A stretch of 64,000 nt of DNA from an uncultured Candidatus Saccharibacteria bacterium (GCA_964411375.1 CAYPKR010000001.1:238807-302806); one strand, 5' to 3'. Counted from the first letter of the stretch, positions 8,140 to 51,533 are shown. Made by a program: numbers and translations. The notes: generated by a model from the sequence alone, not told the origin.

Positions 8140-9783
8140 ATGTCAGTGCAGAAAAAACGCAAATATATTTTTGTTGTAGGCGGAGTAATGTCGGGAGTAG
8201 GGAAGGGTGTCGCTTCATCGTCGATCGGTACCATTTTAAAAGGGCGGGGGTTTAGACTCACCGCCTTAAAAATTGATCCCTATATCAATGTGGACGCCGG
8301 CACCATGAATCCAACCGAGCACGGCGAAGTCTTTGTCCTCAAAGACGGTCTTGAGACCGATCAGGACATGGGCAACTACGAACGATTCCTCAATCAAAGC
8401 TTCGACAGTGGAAACTACATGACCACTGGATCGGTGTATCTCTCGGTAATCCAAAAGGAGCGCAATCTCGAATACAAAGGAAAAAATGTCGAGGTGGTTC
8501 CCGATATTCCGCTCGAAGTCATTAAGCGAATTGAGAATGCCGCGGAAAAAGATTCGGCGGATGTGACTATTGTTGAAATTGGCGGCACGGTCGGTGAATA
8601 TCAAAACATTCTCTTTCTCGAGGCGGCGCGCATGATGAAATCCAAATACCCGAGTGATGTCGCCGTCGTCCTCGTCTCCTATCTGCCGGTTCCGGGATCA
8701 ATCGGTGAAATGAAAACAAAGCCCACGCAGTATGCGGCGCGCACATTAAACAGCGCTGGCGTATTTGCCGACCTCATCATTGCTCGCGCTCCAGTTGCGC
8801 TCGATGAAAAGCGAAAGGAAAAAATCGCAATCTTCTGTAACGTGAAGAAAGAACATGTCATCTCCGCTCCTGATGTTGATTCGATCTATGATGTGCCACT
8901 CAATTTTGAAAAAGACAATCTCGGTGCAATGCTTTGCCATATTCTAGATTTGCCAAATGGTAAACCAACTAATCTCAAAGAATGGGAAGGATTCGTAAAG
9001 CGTGCGAAGGGCACAAAAGGGGAAGTGAAAATTGCAATTGCAGGAAAATATTTTAAATCTGGCGAATTTGTCCTATCGGACGTGTATATTTCGGTTATTG
9101 AATCCTTGAAGTTTTCCGCATATGCAGCAGGCGTAAAGCCAGTCATTACCTATTTGAACGCAAAGGATTTTGAAAATCCAAAAGCGGATTTCTCCGTGCT
9201 CAAAAAATATGACGGTATTTTGGTTCCCGGTGGATTTGGCGAAACTGCGGTTGAAGGAAAAATAAACATAATCAGCTACGCGAGAAAGAATAAGATTCCA
9301 TATTTTGGACTCTGTTACGGCATGCAGCTCATGGTTGTCGAATATGCAAGAAATGTGCTCGGTCTCAAAGATGCAAACACGACGGAAATAAATCAGAAAG
9401 CAAAAGATCCGGTAATCGACATCATGCCAGAGCAGAAAGAAAAAATGGCGAAGAAAGAATACGGCGGCTCCATGCGGCTCGGCACTTATACCGCGAATCT
9501 TCAAAAGGGGACTATCGCCGAAAAAGCGTACAAAGCATCAAAAGTCGACGAGCGCCATCGCCATCGATTTGAAGTCAGTCCAGAATATGTCGAGCGTATC
9601 GAGAAAGGGGGATTAGTGTTTTCGGGCAAGAGTCCGAACGGAGTGCTTATGGAAATAGCCGAACTTCCTGAGAAAGAACATCCATTTTTCCTCGGGACGC
9701 AGTTTCATCCCGAATTCCTCGGTCGTCCGCTTTCACCGCACCCGCTCTTTAGTGCGTTTGTCAGAGCAGCATTGAAAAAATAA
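8140..9783 (+). CDS. pyrG: CTP synthase
   Basis: 547 aa; N-terminal synthetase domain (GGVMSGVGKG) and C-terminal GATase (GLCYGMQ, HRHRFE). Confidence 0.9.
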   Translation: MSVQKKRKYIFVVGGVMSGVGKGVASSSIGTILKGRGFRLTALKIDPYINVDAGTMNPTEHGEVFVLKDGLETDQDMGNYERFLNQSFDSGNYMTTGSVYLSVIQKERNLEYKGKNVEVVPDIPLEVIKRIENAAEKDSADVTIVEIGGTVGEYQNILFLEAARMMKSKYPSDVAVVLVSYLPVPGSIGEMKTKPTQYAARTLNSAGVFADLIIARAPVALDEKRKEKIAIFCNVKKEHVISAPDVDSIYDVPLNFEKDNLGAMLCHILDLPNGKPTNLKEWEGFVKRAKGTKGEVKIAIAGKYFKSGEFVLSDVYISVIESLKFSAYAAGVKPVITYLNAKDFENPKADFSVLKKYDGILVPGGFGETAVEGKINIISYARKNKIPYFGLCYGMQLMVVEYARNVLGLKDANTTEINQKAKDPVIDIMPEQKEKMAKKEYGGSMRLGTYTANLQKGTIAEKAYKASKVDERHRHRFEVSPEYVERIEKGGLVFSGKSPNGVLMEIAELPEKEHPFFLGTQFHPEFLGRPLSPHPLFSAFVRAALKK

Positions 9784-14997: not shown

Positions 14998-15336
14998 ATG
15001 CGTGTCTGGGATCTTCCACCAAAACAGTTGTGCCGAAAACATTTACTCGGCGAGCATCGCGAACTCCACGGTCTTTGGAATATTTTGACCAAACATACAG
15101 GTAAGGGCGGGTATTCAAATCATCCAGAAACAAAACGATGGGTAGGGAAAACCAAGGCGCTCTATTTGCGGCACGAAGCGCTGGTGAAAGAAATGCTACG
15201 GCGCGGATATCAGCACCATTCTCCGCTTGATAAACGGCTTGCGAAAGGGAGTAGTATTCAGCGACTCTATATCGATCATCCGACACGCCAGAGAGAATTG
15301 CTCCATAAAAAACCGTGCGACTGCGTTTTTAAATAA
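14998..15336 (+). CDS. Pyrimidine-dimer DNA glycosylase (T4 endonuclease V-like) family protein
   Basis: 112 aa; N-terminus MRVWDLPPKQLCRKHLLGEHRELHGLW matches the MRxWxLxP..L....L..EHxE pattern of this family. Confidence 0.5.
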   Translation: MRVWDLPPKQLCRKHLLGEHRELHGLWNILTKHTGKGGYSNHPETKRWVGKTKALYLRHEALVKEMLRRGYQHHSPLDKRLAKGSSIQRLYIDHPTRQRELLHKKPCDCVFK

Positions 15337-25633: not shown

Positions 25634-26086
25634 TTATGCCGGCATGCACTTCAAACACTTGCAACCCATTGGTGCGATAATTTCATCAAAATATTCGGTA
25701 TCGTAATCGTAGTTAAGTTCTTCGCCTGCGCGGATATTTCGCTTCGCAATGATGAAAATACGTTCCTTCCAAATTTCCACCTCACAGTTTGGAATACAGG
25801 AGTGATTGATGTAGCGTGCACGATTGTAGCGGACGGCTCCGTCGATTGTTTTGTTTTTTGAAATTTCAAAAAAATATTTGCCGTGTCTTTGTTCAAGTCG
25901 CTCTTCAGGAACAATTGGACCGACATATTCAATGATGCAGGTTCCTTTCTTGATTGGGGAAGTGGCAAATAGCCCAAGGCCGGTACGCGATCTCTTGAGT
26001 TTTAAATCAAAAACCGAAGGAATAAATTTATCCTTTCTCGCTGCCTTTGGTTTTGTTCTTGATATAGTATTCTCTAATACATCCAT
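25634..26086 (-). CDS. SET-domain protein (putative protein-lysine N-methyltransferase)
   Basis: 150 aa; NHSCIPN and ELNYDY SET motifs; C-terminal CKCLKC post-SET-like cysteines. Confidence 0.75.
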   Translation of the reverse strand: MDVLENTISRTKPKAARKDKFIPSVFDLKLKRSRTGLGLFATSPIKKGTCIIEYVGPIVPEERLEQRHGKYFFEISKNKTIDGAVRYNRARYINHSCIPNCEVEIWKERIFIIAKRNIRAGEELNYDYDTEYFDEIIAPMGCKCLKCMPA

Positions 26087-26435
26087 GGAACGAAAATCCT
26101 ATCTTAAAAAGAAAGAAGGCGCAACTTTTAGCGAGAAAGTTTTGAAACTTGCACTTTCTATTCCAGAAGGAAGGGTCGCAACCTATGGGAATATTTCATA
26201 TGCGGCGGGCGGAGGAGCGATGGCCGCACAGAGTATTACCACCATTCTTGGCAAGGCATTCAATGCAGGGGAGAAGCGAATTCCATTTCACCGTATTGTA
26301 TACGCTGATGGAAGAGTCTGGCTGAATTCAAAGTATGATACTGAACGAAAGAAACGATACAAAAAAGAAGGAATTGAAATTGACGCGAAGGGACGGATCA
26401 AAAATTTTGAAAAAGTTCGAATTGAATTCAAATAA
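26085..26435 (+). CDS. Alkyltransferase-like (ATL) protein: MGMT/Ogt C-terminal DNA-binding domain with the active-site Cys replaced (PFHR instead of PCHR)
   Basis: 116 aa from MERKSYLKK; block TYGNISYAAGGGAMAAQSITTILGKA..IPFHRIV aligns to the Ogt C-domain. Confidence 0.65.
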   Translation: MERKSYLKKKEGATFSEKVLKLALSIPEGRVATYGNISYAAGGGAMAAQSITTILGKAFNAGEKRIPFHRIVYADGRVWLNSKYDTERKKRYKKEGIEIDAKGRIKNFEKVRIEFK

Positions 26436-26439
26436 AATA

Positions 26440-26925
26440 ATGCAGATTCCCCGAGGGCTCAAAATCGTCAAATCTTCAAAGCAAGGACTTGGGATTTTTA
26501 CTAAGAAATTGTTTCGACCGGACGAAACTATTTTTGAAGTGACCGGTCGATTTATTTCTGGAGATGCAGACGCTGATGTTGACCCCGAAACACAAGCAAA
26601 TGCATTCCGCTTCGATGAGGACGTGTATATCGATCCTGGGGAGAAGATCGGTAAGTATCTCAATCACTCATGCAATCCAAACGCGTATGTAACAAAAGTC
26701 AGGAAGAAATTATTTGTGAAAGCCGCCAGTCCGATTGTCGCCGACAAAGAAGTGGTAATTGATTATTCCACTATTCTTGCGTCTGATGATATTTGGACGC
26801 TTCGGTGTACGTGTGGAAGTAGGAAATGTCGGAAAAGTATCAAACGATTTGATACACTCCCTAAAAAATTACAAGCGTCGTACCGCGAGCGGGGAATAGT
26901 GCCGGAGTATATACTGAAGATATGA
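26440..26925 (+). CDS. Second SET-domain protein with post-SET Cys cluster
   Basis: 161 aa from MQIPRGLK; NHSCNPN, EVVIDY, CTCGSRKCRK. Confidence 0.75.
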   Translation: MQIPRGLKIVKSSKQGLGIFTKKLFRPDETIFEVTGRFISGDADADVDPETQANAFRFDEDVYIDPGEKIGKYLNHSCNPNAYVTKVRKKLFVKAASPIVADKEVVIDYSTILASDDIWTLRCTCGSRKCRKSIKRFDTLPKKLQASYRERGIVPEYILKI

Positions 26926-44149: not shown

Positions 44150-44315
44150 AGGTTTGAGGGAGTTTGGTCACAGATAATTTTGCTTCGCAACATCTCCGCG
44201 ACCCCGCCTCAAGAAAAGTCCCCCGGACTTTTCTTTCCGGCTTTCAATACCACCGGAGCTTTCTATCTCCACAAGAAAAATAAAAACGCCTTCCTAGGCG
44301 TTTTTATTTTTCTTG
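44150..44315. repeat. tRNA-3'-flank element copy C (downstream of tmRNA) with the 44-nt core cgaccccgcctcaagaaaagtcccccggacttttctttccggct
   Basis: ~86% identical to the copy A core, with compensatory changes in the hairpin; begins ttggtcacag like the other copies. Confidence 0.55.
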
Positions 44316-44705
44316 TGGAGATGGGGGGATTGAACCCCCGTCCGAAACGGGGCAGGGTTGCGTTCTACAAAGCGTATTCTACTTTATTCCTTTAGGCCGG
44401 TATGGTCGAAGTAGACCAAATGCATACCGAACCGATCTCCTTATTTAACGGGTGTGCCGGAGCATTCACACACGCGAATCCGAATTATATTACACCAGCT
44501 CTAACCTATCGGATGAAGGAAAGAGGGATGCGCTTATGCAGTTGCGTAAGCGAACGCGAAGTCGTTCATCTGGAAAGGAGATAAAACTGACTTTGCGCGT
44601 GCGAGAGTATTCTTTGCACTTATTGGTTCCAGTTTTTTAGGAAGGACTGGGCTTCCGCTTCGCTCGCAGACTCTACGGAACCGAATCGTCGAAACTGACA
44701 TCCCC
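44316..44705 (-). ncRNA. ssrA: tmRNA (SsrA), CCA not encoded; 3' end embedded in a 24-bp hairpin (44262-44322)
   Basis: 5' GGGGATGTCAGTTTCGACG..., tRNA-like acceptor with G3-U70 wobble, T-arm GGGGGTTCAATCCCCC, ~390 nt; adjacent to smpB. Confidence 0.8.
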
Positions 44706-44770: not shown

Positions 44771-45217
44771 CTATCTCGCTTTCATCTCGCGATCCATCTC
44801 GCGCTTCGTATCGCGCGTTTTCAGGGTTTCGCGCTTATCAAATTTCTTCTTGCCGCGGACAATCGCGACCTTGACCTTGATGTAGCGGCCTTTACTATAC
44901 ATTAAAATTGGGACTATTGTCAACCCCTTCGCACCCTCGGCGTCCGTTATTTTTTCGATGTCTTTTGCGCCAAGGAGTAGTTTTCGCGTTCGATCCATTT
45001 CGTAACTCGTTGGGGCATTTTTGGGCTGATGTGCGGGAATGGTTGCGCCAACAAGGAAGACCTCTCCGCCACGTCCAATGACCCTTGCGCTCTCGATTGA
45101 GCCCTGACCGCCCCGGACCGACTTCACTTCAAAACCAAACAGCTCAATACCCGCCTCGATTTCTTCGAGGATTTCATAGTTGAAATGTGCTTTTTTATTC
45201 GATATGAAAGTCGACAT
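44771..45217 (-). CDS. smpB: SsrA-binding protein SmpB
   Basis: 148 aa; AHFNYEILEEIEAGIEL.GFEVKSVR and C-terminal basic tail. Confidence 0.9.
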   Translation of the reverse strand: MSTFISNKKAHFNYEILEEIEAGIELFGFEVKSVRGGQGSIESARVIGRGGEVFLVGATIPAHQPKNAPTSYEMDRTRKLLLGAKDIEKITDAEGAKGLTIVPILMYSKGRYIKVKVAIVRGKKKFDKRETLKTRDTKREMDREMKAR

Positions 45218-48151: not shown

Positions 48152-48165
48152 GAAATCCTAGAGGT

Positions 48166-48212
48166 CAAAAACATAATTGCCGCCAAAAAATTGGCGGCAA
48201 TTATGTTTTTGA
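48166..48212 (+). terminator. Intrinsic terminator: 19-bp stem caaaaacataattgccgcc/ggcggcaattatgtttttg
   Basis: Perfect inverted repeat just after the stop at 48151, T-rich 3' side. Confidence 0.6.
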
Positions 48213-48439: not shown

Positions 48440-49144
48440 GTGTATTCCTGTGCTACAATCCTGTCAAGTAAATTCAATACAATTGTGGATAGTGAAAGAG
48501 CGCGCAAAATAAGGATAAAATCACTCATCAAAAAATTGAAATCGCTTTTTCAGAGTGGCGGAACAATTTTGGAGTACCAAACACCATTTGAATTATTGGT
48601 GGCAGTTGAACTTTCTGCACAGTCGACTGACAAGCTCGTCAATATCGTTACGAAGACATTATTCAAAAAATATCCAACACTTGATCATTATGTTCGTGCA
48701 AAACCACGCGAATTTGAAAAAGATATTTTCAAAACTGGCTATTATCGAAATAAAACAAAAAATATTTTAGCGGCGGCAAAAGTGGTCAAAGGTAAGTTCG
48801 GAGGAGTCCTCCCTCGAACGATTGAGGAGATGATCACGATTCCGGGTGTTGGGCGAAAAACTGCAAATGTTGTGCTTGGAAATCTCTATGGCATTGCAGA
48901 AGGAATCGCAGTCGATACTCATGTTTGGCGGTTTGCGGTTAGATTCGATTTAACCGATCACCCTAAAAATGTCCACAAAATTGAACAGGATTTGATGCGT
49001 ATTATTCCGCAAAAAGATTGGTTCCTCTTCACCCATCTTGCGATTGAATATGGCAGAAAAATAGCACCAGCACGAAAGTATGATGTTTCGAACGATCCTC
49101 TTATAAAAATATATCCGCCCGCGGGGCAGCGGTTTAAAAAATAA
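48440..49144 (+). CDS. nth: Endonuclease III-like HhH-GPD DNA glycosylase lacking the C-terminal 4Fe-4S Cys cluster
   Basis: 234 aa; HhH-GPD ITIPGVGRKTANVVL and catalytic-region D; no C-x6-C-x2-C-x5-C at the C-terminus. Confidence 0.65.
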   Translation: MYSCATILSSKFNTIVDSERARKIRIKSLIKKLKSLFQSGGTILEYQTPFELLVAVELSAQSTDKLVNIVTKTLFKKYPTLDHYVRAKPREFEKDIFKTGYYRNKTKNILAAAKVVKGKFGGVLPRTIEEMITIPGVGRKTANVVLGNLYGIAEGIAVDTHVWRFAVRFDLTDHPKNVHKIEQDLMRIIPQKDWFLFTHLAIEYGRKIAPARKYDVSNDPLIKIYPPAGQRFKK

Positions 49145-49288
49145 CTGGAGGGAGTACACTAGTGGTATGAAGCATTTCGGAAATCCGGCAAAACGAAAAG
49201 GGCTGGCAGGATATCGTACGCCGTCTCGTTTTATTCACCGAAAACCGATTGATGTTGCGCTTACGAAAGTAAAATCTCACGGAACGAT

Positions 49289-49981
49289 ATGGAGAAAAAA
49301 CGAAAAGTAGCCATCTTTGATATTGACGGAACAATTTTTCGCTCGTCGCTCATTATTGAGCTTGTTGATGTACTCGTCGAAGAAGAACTTTTCCCAGTTT
49401 CCGCACGAAATGAGTATGAGCGTGAATACCGTAAGTGGCACGAACGAAAAGGGCATTATGACGAGTATATAAACGCACTTGTCGAAACTTTCATGGAGCA
49501 TGTGAAAGGCGTTCACTTCAAAGATATGGAACGTGCCGCAAAACTCACCATCGCACGTGAAAAAGATCGCGTCTATCGCTATACGCGCGATTTGGTCAGC
49601 GAGCTCAAAGAAAAGGATTATTATCTACTCGCTATTTCTCAATCTCCCAAACTGATTGTCGAAGGATTCGCCAAACATCTTGGCTTCGACAAAGTGTACG
49701 GTCGTATTTATGAAGTCGGTCCCAATGAACGATTTACGGGAGAAATTGAAAATCTTCACTTAATTGCAAACAAAGCAAATATTGTGAAGCGTGCGGTTGA
49801 AAAGGAAAATCTAACGCTCGAAGCTTCTGTTGGTGTTGGAGACACTGACGGCGACATTCCTTTTTTGGAAATGGTAGAAAAACCAATTTGCTTTAATCCA
49901 AATGCGCTGCTCTACAAGCACGCGAAGCGAAATGGTTGGAAAGTGGTAGTTGAACGAAAAGACGTCGTGTACGAATTGTGA
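49289..49981 (+). CDS. HAD-IB family hydrolase (phosphoserine-phosphatase-like)
   Basis: 230 aa; motif I FDIDGT, motif IV GDTDGD. Confidence 0.7.
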   Translation: MEKKRKVAIFDIDGTIFRSSLIIELVDVLVEEELFPVSARNEYEREYRKWHERKGHYDEYINALVETFMEHVKGVHFKDMERAAKLTIAREKDRVYRYTRDLVSELKEKDYYLLAISQSPKLIVEGFAKHLGFDKVYGRIYEVGPNERFTGEIENLHLIANKANIVKRAVEKENLTLEASVGVGDTDGDIPFLEMVEKPICFNPNALLYKHAKRNGWKVVVERKDVVYEL

Positions 49982-49991
49982 TACCAAGACG

Positions 49992-50717
49992 ATGAAATAT
50001 TTCTTCATATGCATACTTCTATTTGTAATTCTCTACGTACTGTATGTAGCTTCAAAAATATTTTGGAGCGGTACGGGAGAGCTTATTCGTCTCGCACATC
50101 CATTTGAACGAAAAGTGGAACATGGTTCGCCGCGTATTTTGGTAATTGGAGACTCGACCGGTGTTGGAGTAGGAAGCGACGTGCCTGAACATTCGATTGC
50201 AGGGAGGCTCGGCGTGGATTTTCCAGATGCATACATTGAAAATCATGCGGTTTCTGGAGCCGTCGTGCACGACGCGCTCAGGCAGTTTGATGGTGTTTCC
50301 GAAAATTCATTCGACATCGTACTGCTTCAAATTGGTGCAAATGATGTTACACACTTTACTAATATCGATCGGCTCCGCTTTGAATTGAAAGAGCTCTACG
50401 TACAAGCGAAGAAATCGGGGAAGGCAGTTTTCCATATGTCATCGGGAAGTGTGGGTTTCGCACCAGCATTCCCACATCCTTTTGGCGCTATTTTTACGAA
50501 CCGCACGCTGTTGGTTCGAGAAATGTTTTTGGACGAATCTCTGAAAGACGGCATTCACTATATCGATCTCTATCGACCACGAGAAACAGATATTTTCCTC
50601 ACTGATCCAAAAAGGTATTTTGCAACTGACTCATTCCATCCGAGTGCGGACGGTTACGCCGTTTGGTACGTCGAGGTTCGAAAGGCGCTCCTTGCAGAGG
50701 GATTGCTCTCCAAGTAA
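49992..50717 (+). CDS. SGNH/GDSL-family hydrolase with N-terminal TM anchor; ORF opens at 49950, start taken after the HAD stop
   Basis: GDS block VIGDSTGVG, Gly block, C-terminal DSFHPSADGY (DxxH). Confidence 0.65.
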   Translation: MKYFFICILLFVILYVLYVASKIFWSGTGELIRLAHPFERKVEHGSPRILVIGDSTGVGVGSDVPEHSIAGRLGVDFPDAYIENHAVSGAVVHDALRQFDGVSENSFDIVLLQIGANDVTHFTNIDRLRFELKELYVQAKKSGKAVFHMSSGSVGFAPAFPHPFGAIFTNRTLLVREMFLDESLKDGIHYIDLYRPRETDIFLTDPKRYFATDSFHPSADGYAVWYVEVRKALLAEGLLSK

Positions 50718-50726
50718 TCTGCTGTA

Positions 50727-51533
50727 GTGAGTTTGGAAACTAAGAAGTTTAAAGTTGTGGTCAAAAAATACTATCGAGAAAATCGGCGTAGTTTTCCATG
50801 GAGAAAAACGACTAATCCATACAAAATTCTTGTCTCTGAAGTGATGCTTCAGCAAACACAGACTGACCGCGTAGTTCCCAAATTCAACGCCTTTATCAAA
50901 GCATTTCCAACTGTAGAAGCACTCGCAAACGCGCCGCTTCGAGAAGTGTTAGTTCTTTGGCAAGGACTTGGGTACAATCGCCGCGCAAAACATCTCCACG
51001 TAGCGGCGAAGCAGATTGTTGAAAAGTTTGGAGGAAAGGTTCCGAAGGAAGAATCAGGTCTCCGGACGCTTTCGGGAGTCGGTCCCTATATTGCAGGCGC
51101 AGTTCGCGCTTTCGCATTTAACAAACCAGCAGTTTTTATTGAAACAAATATTCGGACAAGTCTCACGCATTATTTTTTCCCGAATACAGAAAAAGTATCA
51201 GACGCTGAATTATTTCCACTTCTTGAAAAATTGATTGTCGGTGAGGCACCGCGCGAATGGTATTCGGCGCTCATGGATTATGGCTCCAGTCTGAAACGTT
51301 CGGGAATTCGAATAAACCATCGAAGTCATTCATATACGAAGCAATCACGTTTCGAGGGGTCGGATAGACAGATTCGTGGAAAAATATTGAAATTGCTCAA
51401 AGAAAATCCTCTTGAAGAAAAAAAGTTACTGAAGAGCGCGAGCGAAGATCTCATTCGTGCAAAAGTACAACTTACAAATCTAATTGCGGAAGGGCTTGTG
51501 TCAAAAAAGAAGGATACGATCCGACTCGGCTAA
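50727..51533 (+). CDS. MutY-like adenine DNA glycosylase N-terminal (HhH-GPD) domain protein without Fe-S cluster and without a MutT-like C-domain
   Basis: 268 aa; YRENRRSFPWRKTTNPYKILVSEVMLQQTQ, GLGYNRRAKHL, LSGVGPYIAGAV all MutY-like; no Cys cluster. Confidence 0.6.
   Translation: MSLETKKFKVVVKKYYRENRRSFPWRKTTNPYKILVSEVMLQQTQTDRVVPKFNAFIKAFPTVEALANAPLREVLVLWQGLGYNRRAKHLHVAAKQIVEKFGGKVPKEESGLRTLSGVGPYIAGAVRAFAFNKPAVFIETNIRTSLTHYFFPNTEKVSDAELFPLLEKLIVGEAPREWYSALMDYGSSLKRSGIRINHRSHSYTKQSRFEGSDRQIRGKILKLLKENPLEEKKLLKSASEDLIRAKVQLTNLIAEGLVSKKKDTIRLG

Follow-up and report, generated by a model that had tools for sequence, protein, structure and literature searches.

What the [4Fe-4S] cluster does in the DNA glycosylases endonuclease III (EndoIII, Nth) and MutY has long been debated, with structural, DNA-binding, allosteric, and redox or charge-transport signalling functions under discussion. 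Other enzymes with the HhH-GPD fold, such as AlkA, Ogg1/Ogg2, MBD4 and MagIII, natively carry no cluster. Here we describe a locus at positions 48440-51533 of a 64,000-nucleotide stretch of DNA from an uncultured Candidatus Saccharibacteria bacterium (the whole stretch is called the window below). In this locus, the genes of an EndoIII-like glycosylase (P1) and a MutY-like glycosylase (P4), both devoid of cysteine, are separated by genes of a HAD-IB phosphatase (P2) and an SGNH hydrolase (P3). Our preferred reading, with a probability of roughly 0.8, is that P1 and P4 are two functional base excision repair (BER) glycosylases of Patescibacteria that work without a metal cofactor, P1 being of the EndoIII type and P4 a MutYX, and that the HAD and SGNH genes are passengers.

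The cluster-less MutY proteins called MutYX were reportedly first noted in FEBS J in 2016. A cluster-free MutY solution was visualised only in 2025, with the structure of the Eggerthella MutYX, a cluster-less adenine glycosylase (8UUC; Trasviña-Arenas et al., NAR 2025, PMC12631127). In MutYX, an extended helix H11 and an additional helix Hw, anchored by Tyr180 and Arg193/194, take the place of the cluster; an X domain of ~67 aa, made of three helices and three short strands, replaces the MutT-like domain; and Gln201 and Arg209 of the connector/X domain, not the FSH loop, recognise 8-oxoG (PMC12631127). Glu134 stands where other MutY enzymes have the catalytic Asp, while the Tyr132/Ala116 swap is a feature of an actinobacterial subgroup and is also absent from the Entamoeba and Chlorobi MutYX (PMC12631127).

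A different kind of cluster-less MutY is found in Lactobacillales (L. brevis, S. pneumoniae), where the [4Fe-4S] ligands were naturally lost and the activity was retained (PMC12631127). These proteins keep the MutT-like domain and the FSH loop, whereas P4 has an X domain. For EndoIII, variants without the ligands were noted in 2002, which is the sole such mention in the MutYX paper (PMC12631127). In the literature, we found no EndoIII counterpart to MutYX, neither a cluster-free structure nor biochemistry.

The MutY-like protein as a member of the MutYX family

P4 matched the HhH-GPD domain as well as the mutY family (TIGR01084, E 2.5e-53), the latter with 181 bits against a cut-off of 286.5 and in profile positions 6-188 of 277 only. 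Neither a NUDIX-like C-terminal domain nor an Fe-S loop domain was detected in P4 with Pfam and NCBIfam. The best sequence match in PDB was 8UUC, with an E-value of 2.9e-56 compared to ~1e-39 for canonical MutY, and the alignment extended beyond the catalytic domain. The AlphaFold2 (AF2) model of P4, made with 45 homologues, had a predicted local distance difference test (pLDDT) score of 93.9. Its Foldseek superposition on chain 8uuc_A gave a template modelling (TM) score of 0.94 and a root-mean-square deviation (rmsd) of 1.5 Å over 267 columns with 40% identity, while canonical MutY structures fitted only the N-domain of the model (query-based score TMq 0.62-0.66).

Two other placements of P4 were rejected. 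Canonical MutY was set aside given the zero cysteines, the missing MutT-like domain and the score below the TIGR01084 cut-off. The Ogg, AlkA or MBD4 type was set aside as well, as the ogg matches (E 0.003-0.008 for the two glycosylases) were far below the cut-off, AlkA was not matched, and OGG1 structures ranked 47th or lower. P4 is a full-length MutYX and belongs to a known Fe-S-free family; therefore, its missing cluster is expected. The first-pass annotation of this DNA, made from the sequence alone, was right that the protein has no MutT-like domain, but its description as 'N-domain-like' does not hold for a full-length protein with an X domain.

The alignment with the 8UUC fragment made it possible to assign the catalytic residues. 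In P4, E38 (50838-50840), situated in the motif SEVMLQQT, corresponds to Glu33, Y83 to the intercalating Tyr78, and E139 (51141-51143) to Glu134, in place of the canonical Asp. This last position was occupied by Glu in 117 of 120 homologues. Further downstream, Y185 corresponds to Tyr180, R199 to Arg194, Q206 (51342-51344) to Gln201 and R214 (51366-51368) to Arg209, with His198 as the equivalent of Arg193. The Gln and Arg that read 8-oxoG were invariant in all 120 homologues. The C-terminal X domain of ~60 residues is winged-helix-like; in the model its helices span residues 203-216, 221-228 and 232-245 and its strands residues 248-251 and 254-257. These numbers refer to the 258-aa form of the protein, translated from the alternative GTG start at 50757, as in the database protein P0121.

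P4 shares with the Eggerthella MutYX the full-length fold, the absence of Cys, the X domain, the Gln/Arg pair, the Glu-for-Asp replacement, the intercalating Tyr and the helix-H9 anchors Tyr180/Arg194. On the other hand, it has kept a tyrosine in helix H8 (Y121) along with F137, compared to Ala116 and Tyr132 in the Eggerthella protein. The H8 tyrosine was present in 119/120 homologues, and the Glu/Tyr combination in 117-119 of the 120 homologues from the Candidate Phyla Radiation (CPR). We observed that the CPR MutYX represent a third active-site configuration, which combines the actinobacterial catalytic Glu with the H8 Tyr of canonical MutY and of the Entamoeba and Chlorobi MutYX.

By analogy with the described family, P4 would remove A opposite 8-oxoG by means of Glu38 and Glu139. 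Recognition of 8-oxoG would fall to Gln206 and Arg214 of the connector/X domain, not to a MutT-like domain, and an extended helix with an extra helix would stand in for the cluster, as in the crystallised MutYX of Eggerthella. Since the Gln/Arg pair is conserved, the predicted substrate is still the 8-oxoG:A pair (OG:A). The altered substrate recognition proposed earlier thus applies to its mode, with Gln/Arg replacing the FSH loop, and not to the predicted substrate.

The distribution of MutYX was assessed in the contexts of homologues and in 80 loci of GTDB species that surround relatives of MutYX, which were searched by tblastn with the window proteins; 86 loci were inspected (85 and, in addition, L086). 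The larger set of 597 related stretches does not equal 597 MutYX genomes, as the search pattern VSE[VIM]MLQQ also matches canonical MutY. The X-domain motif without the Cys motif was found in 66 of the 86 inspected loci. The published description of MutYX does not list Patescibacteria, the phylum of the P4 host, among its clades (PMC12631127).

In seven loci (L075, L077, L078, L080, L082, L083 and L085), we observed MutY homologues with an intact Fe-S Cys motif together with the X-domain signature (Q..F.GS.RQ.RG, with a winged-helix-like C-terminus). Such proteins, encoded by Acidimicrobiales, other Actinomycetota and Dormibacteraeota, matched at ~8001-8870 of each locus (1464-2297 in L078). 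A published PSI-BLAST search with the X domain gave only cluster-less homologues (PMC12631127). The X domain would then not be confined to cluster-less MutY and, because it occurs with an intact Cys motif in some homologues, it is probably older than the loss of the cluster.

MutYX-like genes were also seen in metagenome-assembled genomes (MAGs) labelled as archaeal (L011, L013, L017, L031, L038, L066, L067 and L081), the labels being Methanoregulaceae, Methanospirillum, Methanomicrobiales, Promethearchaeota, Woesearchaeota and Methanosarcinales. Their identity was 37-56% by tblastn and 38-51% in the locus table. Taken by MAG label, these genes extend the distribution beyond the clades that the MutYX paper names (PMC12631127). 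In one more locus (L028, 5368-6789), MutYX was directly followed by an EndoIII with C-x6-H-x2-C-x5-L (CHC type), a further case of MutYX next to an Nth with degenerate ligands, here outside the genomes labelled Patescibacteria; the MAG is labelled Gammaproteobacteria, a label that may be a binning error.

The endonuclease III homologue and its cluster loop

A database protein (P0001) is 100% identical to P1 and starts at the in-frame GTG 48485. P1 matched the Pfam domains HhH-GPD and HHH and had no Fe-S loop domain match in Pfam or NCBIfam. The match to the NCBIfam family nth (TIGR01083) had 191.6 bits and an E-value of 1e-56. The PDB sequence search and the HMMER alignment showed 39% identity with the G. 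stearothermophilus enzyme (GsEndoIII; 1p59/1orn, E 5e-42). The AF2 model (pLDDT 93.8) superposed on 1orn/1p59 with a TM score of 0.88-0.89 and an rmsd of 2.1 Å over ~212 columns, the C-terminal loop included.

The catalytic residues of P1 are Lys125 within GVGRKTANV (codon 48857-48859) and Asp144 within AVDTH (codon 48914-48916), which correspond to K120 and D138 of E. coli EndoIII. Both columns were invariant in the family alignment. Among the 120 nearest homologues, the K motif was found in 116 and the D motif in all. With a mean column identity of 61%, the family is under strong constraint. An AlkA, Ogg or MBD4 type was rejected for P1: ogg was matched with an E-value of 0.008, far below the cut-off, AlkA was not matched, and EndoIII was at the top. 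Both sequence and fold identify P1 as a true EndoIII.

Compared to the known EndoIII structures (2ABK; 1P59, 1ORN), P1 has the same HhH motif, Lys in GVGRKTAN, Asp in VDTH, fold and loop length; the difference is that all four Cys of the [4Fe-4S] site are replaced and no cysteine is present anywhere. P1 and P4 share with AlkA, Ogg1/Ogg2, MBD4 and MagIII an Fe-S-free HhH-GPD fold, yet they nest within EndoIII and MutY instead. The first-pass annotation had allowed that both glycosylases might fall into known Fe-S-free families, which occurred for P4 but not for P1. Its claim that the two proteins keep the catalytic region and lack the C-x6-C-x2-C-x5-C motif is borne out by the K/D pair of P1, the Glu of P4 and the zero cysteine count of each translation. 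Without cysteines, neither protein can bind a Cys-ligated [4Fe-4S] cluster.

In the HMMER alignment, the four Cys ligands of GsEndoIII aligned without gaps with A194, V201, D204 and Y210 of P1. The first-ligand Cys was present in all five distinct EndoIII chains aligned (1p59, 1orn, 2abk, 9nzc and 9nzd). Conversely, none of the 120 nearest P1 homologues (59-100% identity) had the C-x6-C-x2-C-x5-C motif. The ligand pattern A-[TIVL]-D-[YF], with Tyr at loop position +5, was found in 93 of them, and the pattern C-C-H-[YFC], with His at +5, in the other 27. In all 25 CCHY sequences the +5 residue was His, giving a coherent C-x4-H-x-C-x2-H tetrad. This covariation of four positions suggests a different metal site, possibly for Zn, which may be intermediate between the [4Fe-4S] and the metal-free states.

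The C-x4-H-x-C-x2-H tetrad was carried by the database proteins P0027, P0039, P0049, P0066, P0085, P0109, P0115, P0244, P0250, P0259 and P0267. The same type was seen in the Nth ORFs (open reading frames) upstream of MutYX in loci L007-L009 and L020.

For a wider survey of EndoIII, ligand columns were tabulated from a HMMER search against 1.84 billion representatives. This survey added the forms CCCY/H, CHC/H and SDDL, while canonical CCCC took over among the P1 relatives from ~50% identity downward. An unbootstrapped neighbour-joining tree used 184 alignment columns, all on the N-terminal side of the motif, with the ligand region excluded. All degenerate forms made one clade nested inside canonical CCCC EndoIII, so the tree suggests that the loss of the cluster was secondary. 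The nearest homologues of both glycosylases came from Patescibacteria/CPR genomes (UBA2103, Wolfebacteria, Jorgensenbacteria, Kaiserbacteria and Parcubacteria), with contigs of ~0.5 Mb that resemble complete genomes of small size. The observed ligand sets fit a stepwise secondary loss within Patescibacteria (CCCC to C-H-C-H to A-Y-T-D), in which P1 would be at the fully ligand-free end. A full-text literature search returned no paper describing a cluster-less EndoIII clade or a link to CPR. The P1 clade is, apparently, a large, tightly conserved and undescribed cluster-free group of EndoIII in Patescibacteria.

Gene order around the two glycosylases

The listing of ORFs for 44-56 kb confirmed the four consecutive genes of the first-pass annotation, all on the plus strand, in the order EndoIII-like glycosylase, HAD-IB phosphatase, SGNH hydrolase and MutY-like glycosylase. 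Coordinates of the features are given in Table 1.

Table 1. Features of the glycosylase locus, with positions counted from the first letter of the window
Feature	Position	Strand	Details
Terminator-like hairpin, strong, 20-bp stem	48165..48212	+	3' of the upstream DUF8173 gene
P1, cluster-less endonuclease III homologue, 219 aa	48485..49144	+	GTG start 48485; ORF open from GTG 48440
EndoIII active-site segment of P1	48857..48916	+	Alignment to GsEndoIII and E. coli EndoIII motifs
Degenerate iron-sulfur cluster loop of P1	49064..49114	+	Length of canonical motif kept; ligand positions A194, V201, D204, Y210; Y199 within loop
P2, HAD-IB family phosphatase, 230 aa	49289..49981	+	Motif I DIDGT; TIGR01490 111 bits, above cut-off; PF12710
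P3, SGNH/GDSL hydrolase, 241 aa from ATG 49992	49992..50717	+	PF13472 (GDSL_2) E 1.6e-18; ORF open from 49950
P4, MutYX-type adenine glycosylase, cluster-less, 268 aa	50727..51533	+	Zero Cys; 8UUC E 2.9e-56
MutYX catalytic core of P4	50838..51143	+	E38, Y83, Y121 (helix H8), E139; alignment with 8UUC fragment and 120 homologues
Cluster-replacement helices, interdomain connector and X domain of P4	51279..51530	+	Y185, R199, Q206, R214; AF2, Foldseek, alignment

The hairpin upstream of the run probably marks the beginning of a new transcription unit before the Nth-like gene, and the genes of the run may be co-transcribed. Terminator-like sites numbered 10 in the window against 4.2 expected, and the one upstream of Nth was the sole strong one. 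A promoter scan of the window found 7 candidates against 6.0 expected, which is not above chance. An Rfam scan of the window gave tRNAs and tmRNA only, with no match inside 48440-51533. At the other end of the run, the P4 gene converges on a minus-strand gene of a major facilitator superfamily (MFS) transporter.

The PDB match of P2 to phosphoserine phosphatase 1f5s was weak. P3 has intact catalytic blocks, GDS and DxxH (DSFHP), and its N-terminus MKYFFICILLFVILYVLYV is a hydrophobic membrane anchor; P3 is, therefore, probably extracytoplasmic, an envelope esterase. The PDB relatives of P3 (sialate O-acetylesterase and lysophospholipase L1) also had weak E-values. For both proteins, the relatives act on small molecules or carbohydrates. 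The GC content of the two genes (0.42-0.46) did not stand out from that of their neighbours and thus gave no compositional sign of recent transfer.

We found that a backbone of MutYX, MFS(-), RNase J(-) and SBP5(-) recurs in Patescibacteria. Nth was located just upstream of it in 8 distinct related loci, and four other loci (L006, L012, L015 and L059) had the backbone without Nth within 8 kb. What separates Nth from MutYX varied among the eight. A gene of a PspC-domain protein of 68 aa was found in three (L001, L002/L003 and L004/L005), the closest relatives by Nth, and a HAD-IB gene with 54-70% identity to P2 in the other five (L007, L008, L009, L020 and L086). HAD and SGNH occurred together only in L086, the nearest relative, with RNase J 89% identical and the same gene order as the window from SmpB to SecG; none of the other 85 loci had SGNH at this position. 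The order Nth-HAD-SGNH-MutY is therefore not a conserved module (HAD in 5/8, PspC in 3/8 and SGNH in 1/8 loci). The clustering with HAD and SGNH, called unexplained in the first-pass annotation, is accounted for by an inherited gene order with variable inserts, and the simplest reading of the synteny is that the two genes are lineage-variable passengers.

An alternative is a dedicated operon for repair that comprises all four genes, in which the HAD-IB phosphatase, and perhaps the SGNH hydrolase, would take part in BER, for example by cleaning the 3'-blocked ends that the EndoIII lyase produces or by dephosphorylating damaged nucleotides. The genes do share a strand, with gaps of 144, 10 and 9 nt; Nth-HAD-MutYX triplets are tight in L008 and L009, HAD being the gene between the glycosylases in five of the eight loci; L086 keeps the complete order; and a gene of a YfbR-like 5'-deoxynucleotidase (Pfam) is situated ~2 kb upstream. 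However, in the closest Nth relatives (L001-L005) a small membrane protein with a PspC domain stands in for HAD, and SGNH, present in one other genome only, is membrane-anchored and probably faces outward. The downstream genes MFS, RNase J and SBP5, unrelated to repair, are equally conserved in position, so vertical inheritance suffices. We consider a repair operon unlikely. To our knowledge, the HAD-IB subfamily of P2 (TIGR01490, SerB-like) is not the HAD subfamily to which the known DNA 3'-phosphatases belong, which also counts against it.

Metal content and iron economy

In our preferred reading of a metal-free pair, P1 would act as a bifunctional EndoIII-type glycosylase/AP (apurinic/apyrimidinic) lyase that uses Lys125 for the Schiff base together with Asp144. 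Its full-length loop would presumably be held by side-chain packing and hydrogen bonds instead of a cluster.

It is also conceivable, with a very low probability, that P1 retains a metal or a cluster held by non-Cys ligands (Asp204, Tyr199 or Tyr210), or that it is a non-catalytic DNA-binding relic. Such a site would agree with the exactly conserved length of the loop, with D204 and Y210 being nearly invariant across the clade, and with the C-x4-H-x-C-x2-H tetrad of the sister forms, which resembles a metal site. Nevertheless, two of the four positions are Ala and Val/Thr/Ile, so there is no four-ligand site, and the P1 loop contains neither Cys nor His. MutYX, moreover, is a precedent for a metal-free replacement (PMC12631127). 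As to a relic, neither the catalytic Lys and Asp nor the HhH motif varies in this strongly constrained family, which points to an active enzyme.

An artefact behind the missing cysteines (pseudogene, frameshift or metagenome mis-assembly) has a negligible probability: the source does appear, by the names of homologues, to be a genome of an uncultivated lineage, but the P1 and P4 ORFs are intact and full length and have identical NCBI proteins (P0001 and P0121), the same substitutions recur in hundreds of independent homologues across different assemblies, and the AF2 models are confident through the cluster region.

Several observations weigh against the reading of P1 and P4 as functional metal-free enzymes separated by passenger genes. 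The score of P1 is below the curated equivalog cut-off of TIGR01083 (211.7 bits), so functional equivalence to Nth is not guaranteed. P4 differs from the crystallised MutYX at two active-site positions (Y121 and F137). The EndoIII tree carries no bootstrap support. The HAD-IB gene lies tightly between both glycosylases in at least six species-level genomes, so that it may have a functional link to them, for instance in end processing or nucleotide sanitation. Finally, the function and the metal content ascribed to the cluster-less EndoIII clade are predictions.

A more specific version of the metal-free reading is that P1 is an active, wholly metal-free EndoIII and the end-point of a stepwise cofactor replacement, from the four-Cys [4Fe-4S] site through C-x4-H-x-C-x2-H (possibly with Zn) to a loop packed by Ala/Tyr/Thr/Asp/Tyr. 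We propose this sequence of steps tentatively, with the odds somewhat against it.

The HAD/SGNH association is ordinary, and cluster-less HhH glycosylases are already established as a concept. The MutY half of the pair belongs to a characterised family, to which it adds a phylum and a minor variation of the active site. What is new is the EndoIII half, an uncharacterised variant without the cofactor that is retained in all solved EndoIII structures aligned.

The first-pass annotation had spoken of an iron-independent repair set. By sequence, this stands for P1 and P4 as a pair, and it is specific to this lineage. In Coriobacteriia, canonical CCCC Nth was found near MutYX (L047, L051 and L063), and in some Patescibacteria MutYX was paired with a CCH-type Nth (L007-L009 and L020). 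No Fe-S protein or assembly factor was found by Pfam among the ten most Cys-rich ORFs of the 64-kb window, which says little about the whole genome. These ten were PrkA, an HI0933-like flavoprotein, two SET-domain proteins, SecG, a pyrimidine-dimer glycosylase and four ORFs without a match. Cys content appeared very low throughout the window: its ORFs of at least 90 aa (n=72) had mostly 0-4 Cys, and 23 of the 72 had none. This is consistent with a Cys-poor proteome.

If P1 is indeed metal-free next to a cluster-less MutY, oxidative BER would run in this lineage without any redox-active glycosylase. This would be a natural test of the need for DNA-mediated charge transport between Fe-S glycosylases in the search for lesions. 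The clade offers hundreds of highly conserved sequences, intermediate ligand sets and a partner MutYX at the same locus; these are ready constructs for asking how EndoIII dispenses with the cluster and whether a cell manages without an Fe-S glycosylase. The loci extend MutYX to Patescibacteria and, by MAG label, to archaea. That the X domain can accompany a complete cluster motif, as in some Actinomycetota, is relevant to how the steps of MutYX evolution are ordered. For annotation, CPR proteins named 'endonuclease III' or 'A/G-specific adenine glycosylase' should not be counted as Fe-S proteins.

Besides the locus, the window encodes another cofactor-free glycosylase, a pyrimidine-dimer DNA glycosylase of 112 aa similar to T4 endonuclease V (14998-15336, plus strand; PF03013, E 3.9e-27). 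Two divergent SET-domain proteins, lysine methyltransferase-like, are encoded at 25634-26086 (minus strand) and 26335-26925 (plus strand), with PF00856 E-values of 2.7e-25 and 4.8e-12, respectively. A PrkA-type AAA serine protein kinase (PF08298, PF06798) is encoded at 107-2035 on the minus strand. The tmRNA gene is situated at 44313-44705 on the minus strand (Rfam, 104 bits), its tag peptide ends with ...FAFAYATA, and several spurious ORFs overlap it. The adjacent ORF at 44771-45217 (minus strand) is, by position, probably smpB; its counterpart in L086 matches PF01668 (SmpB).

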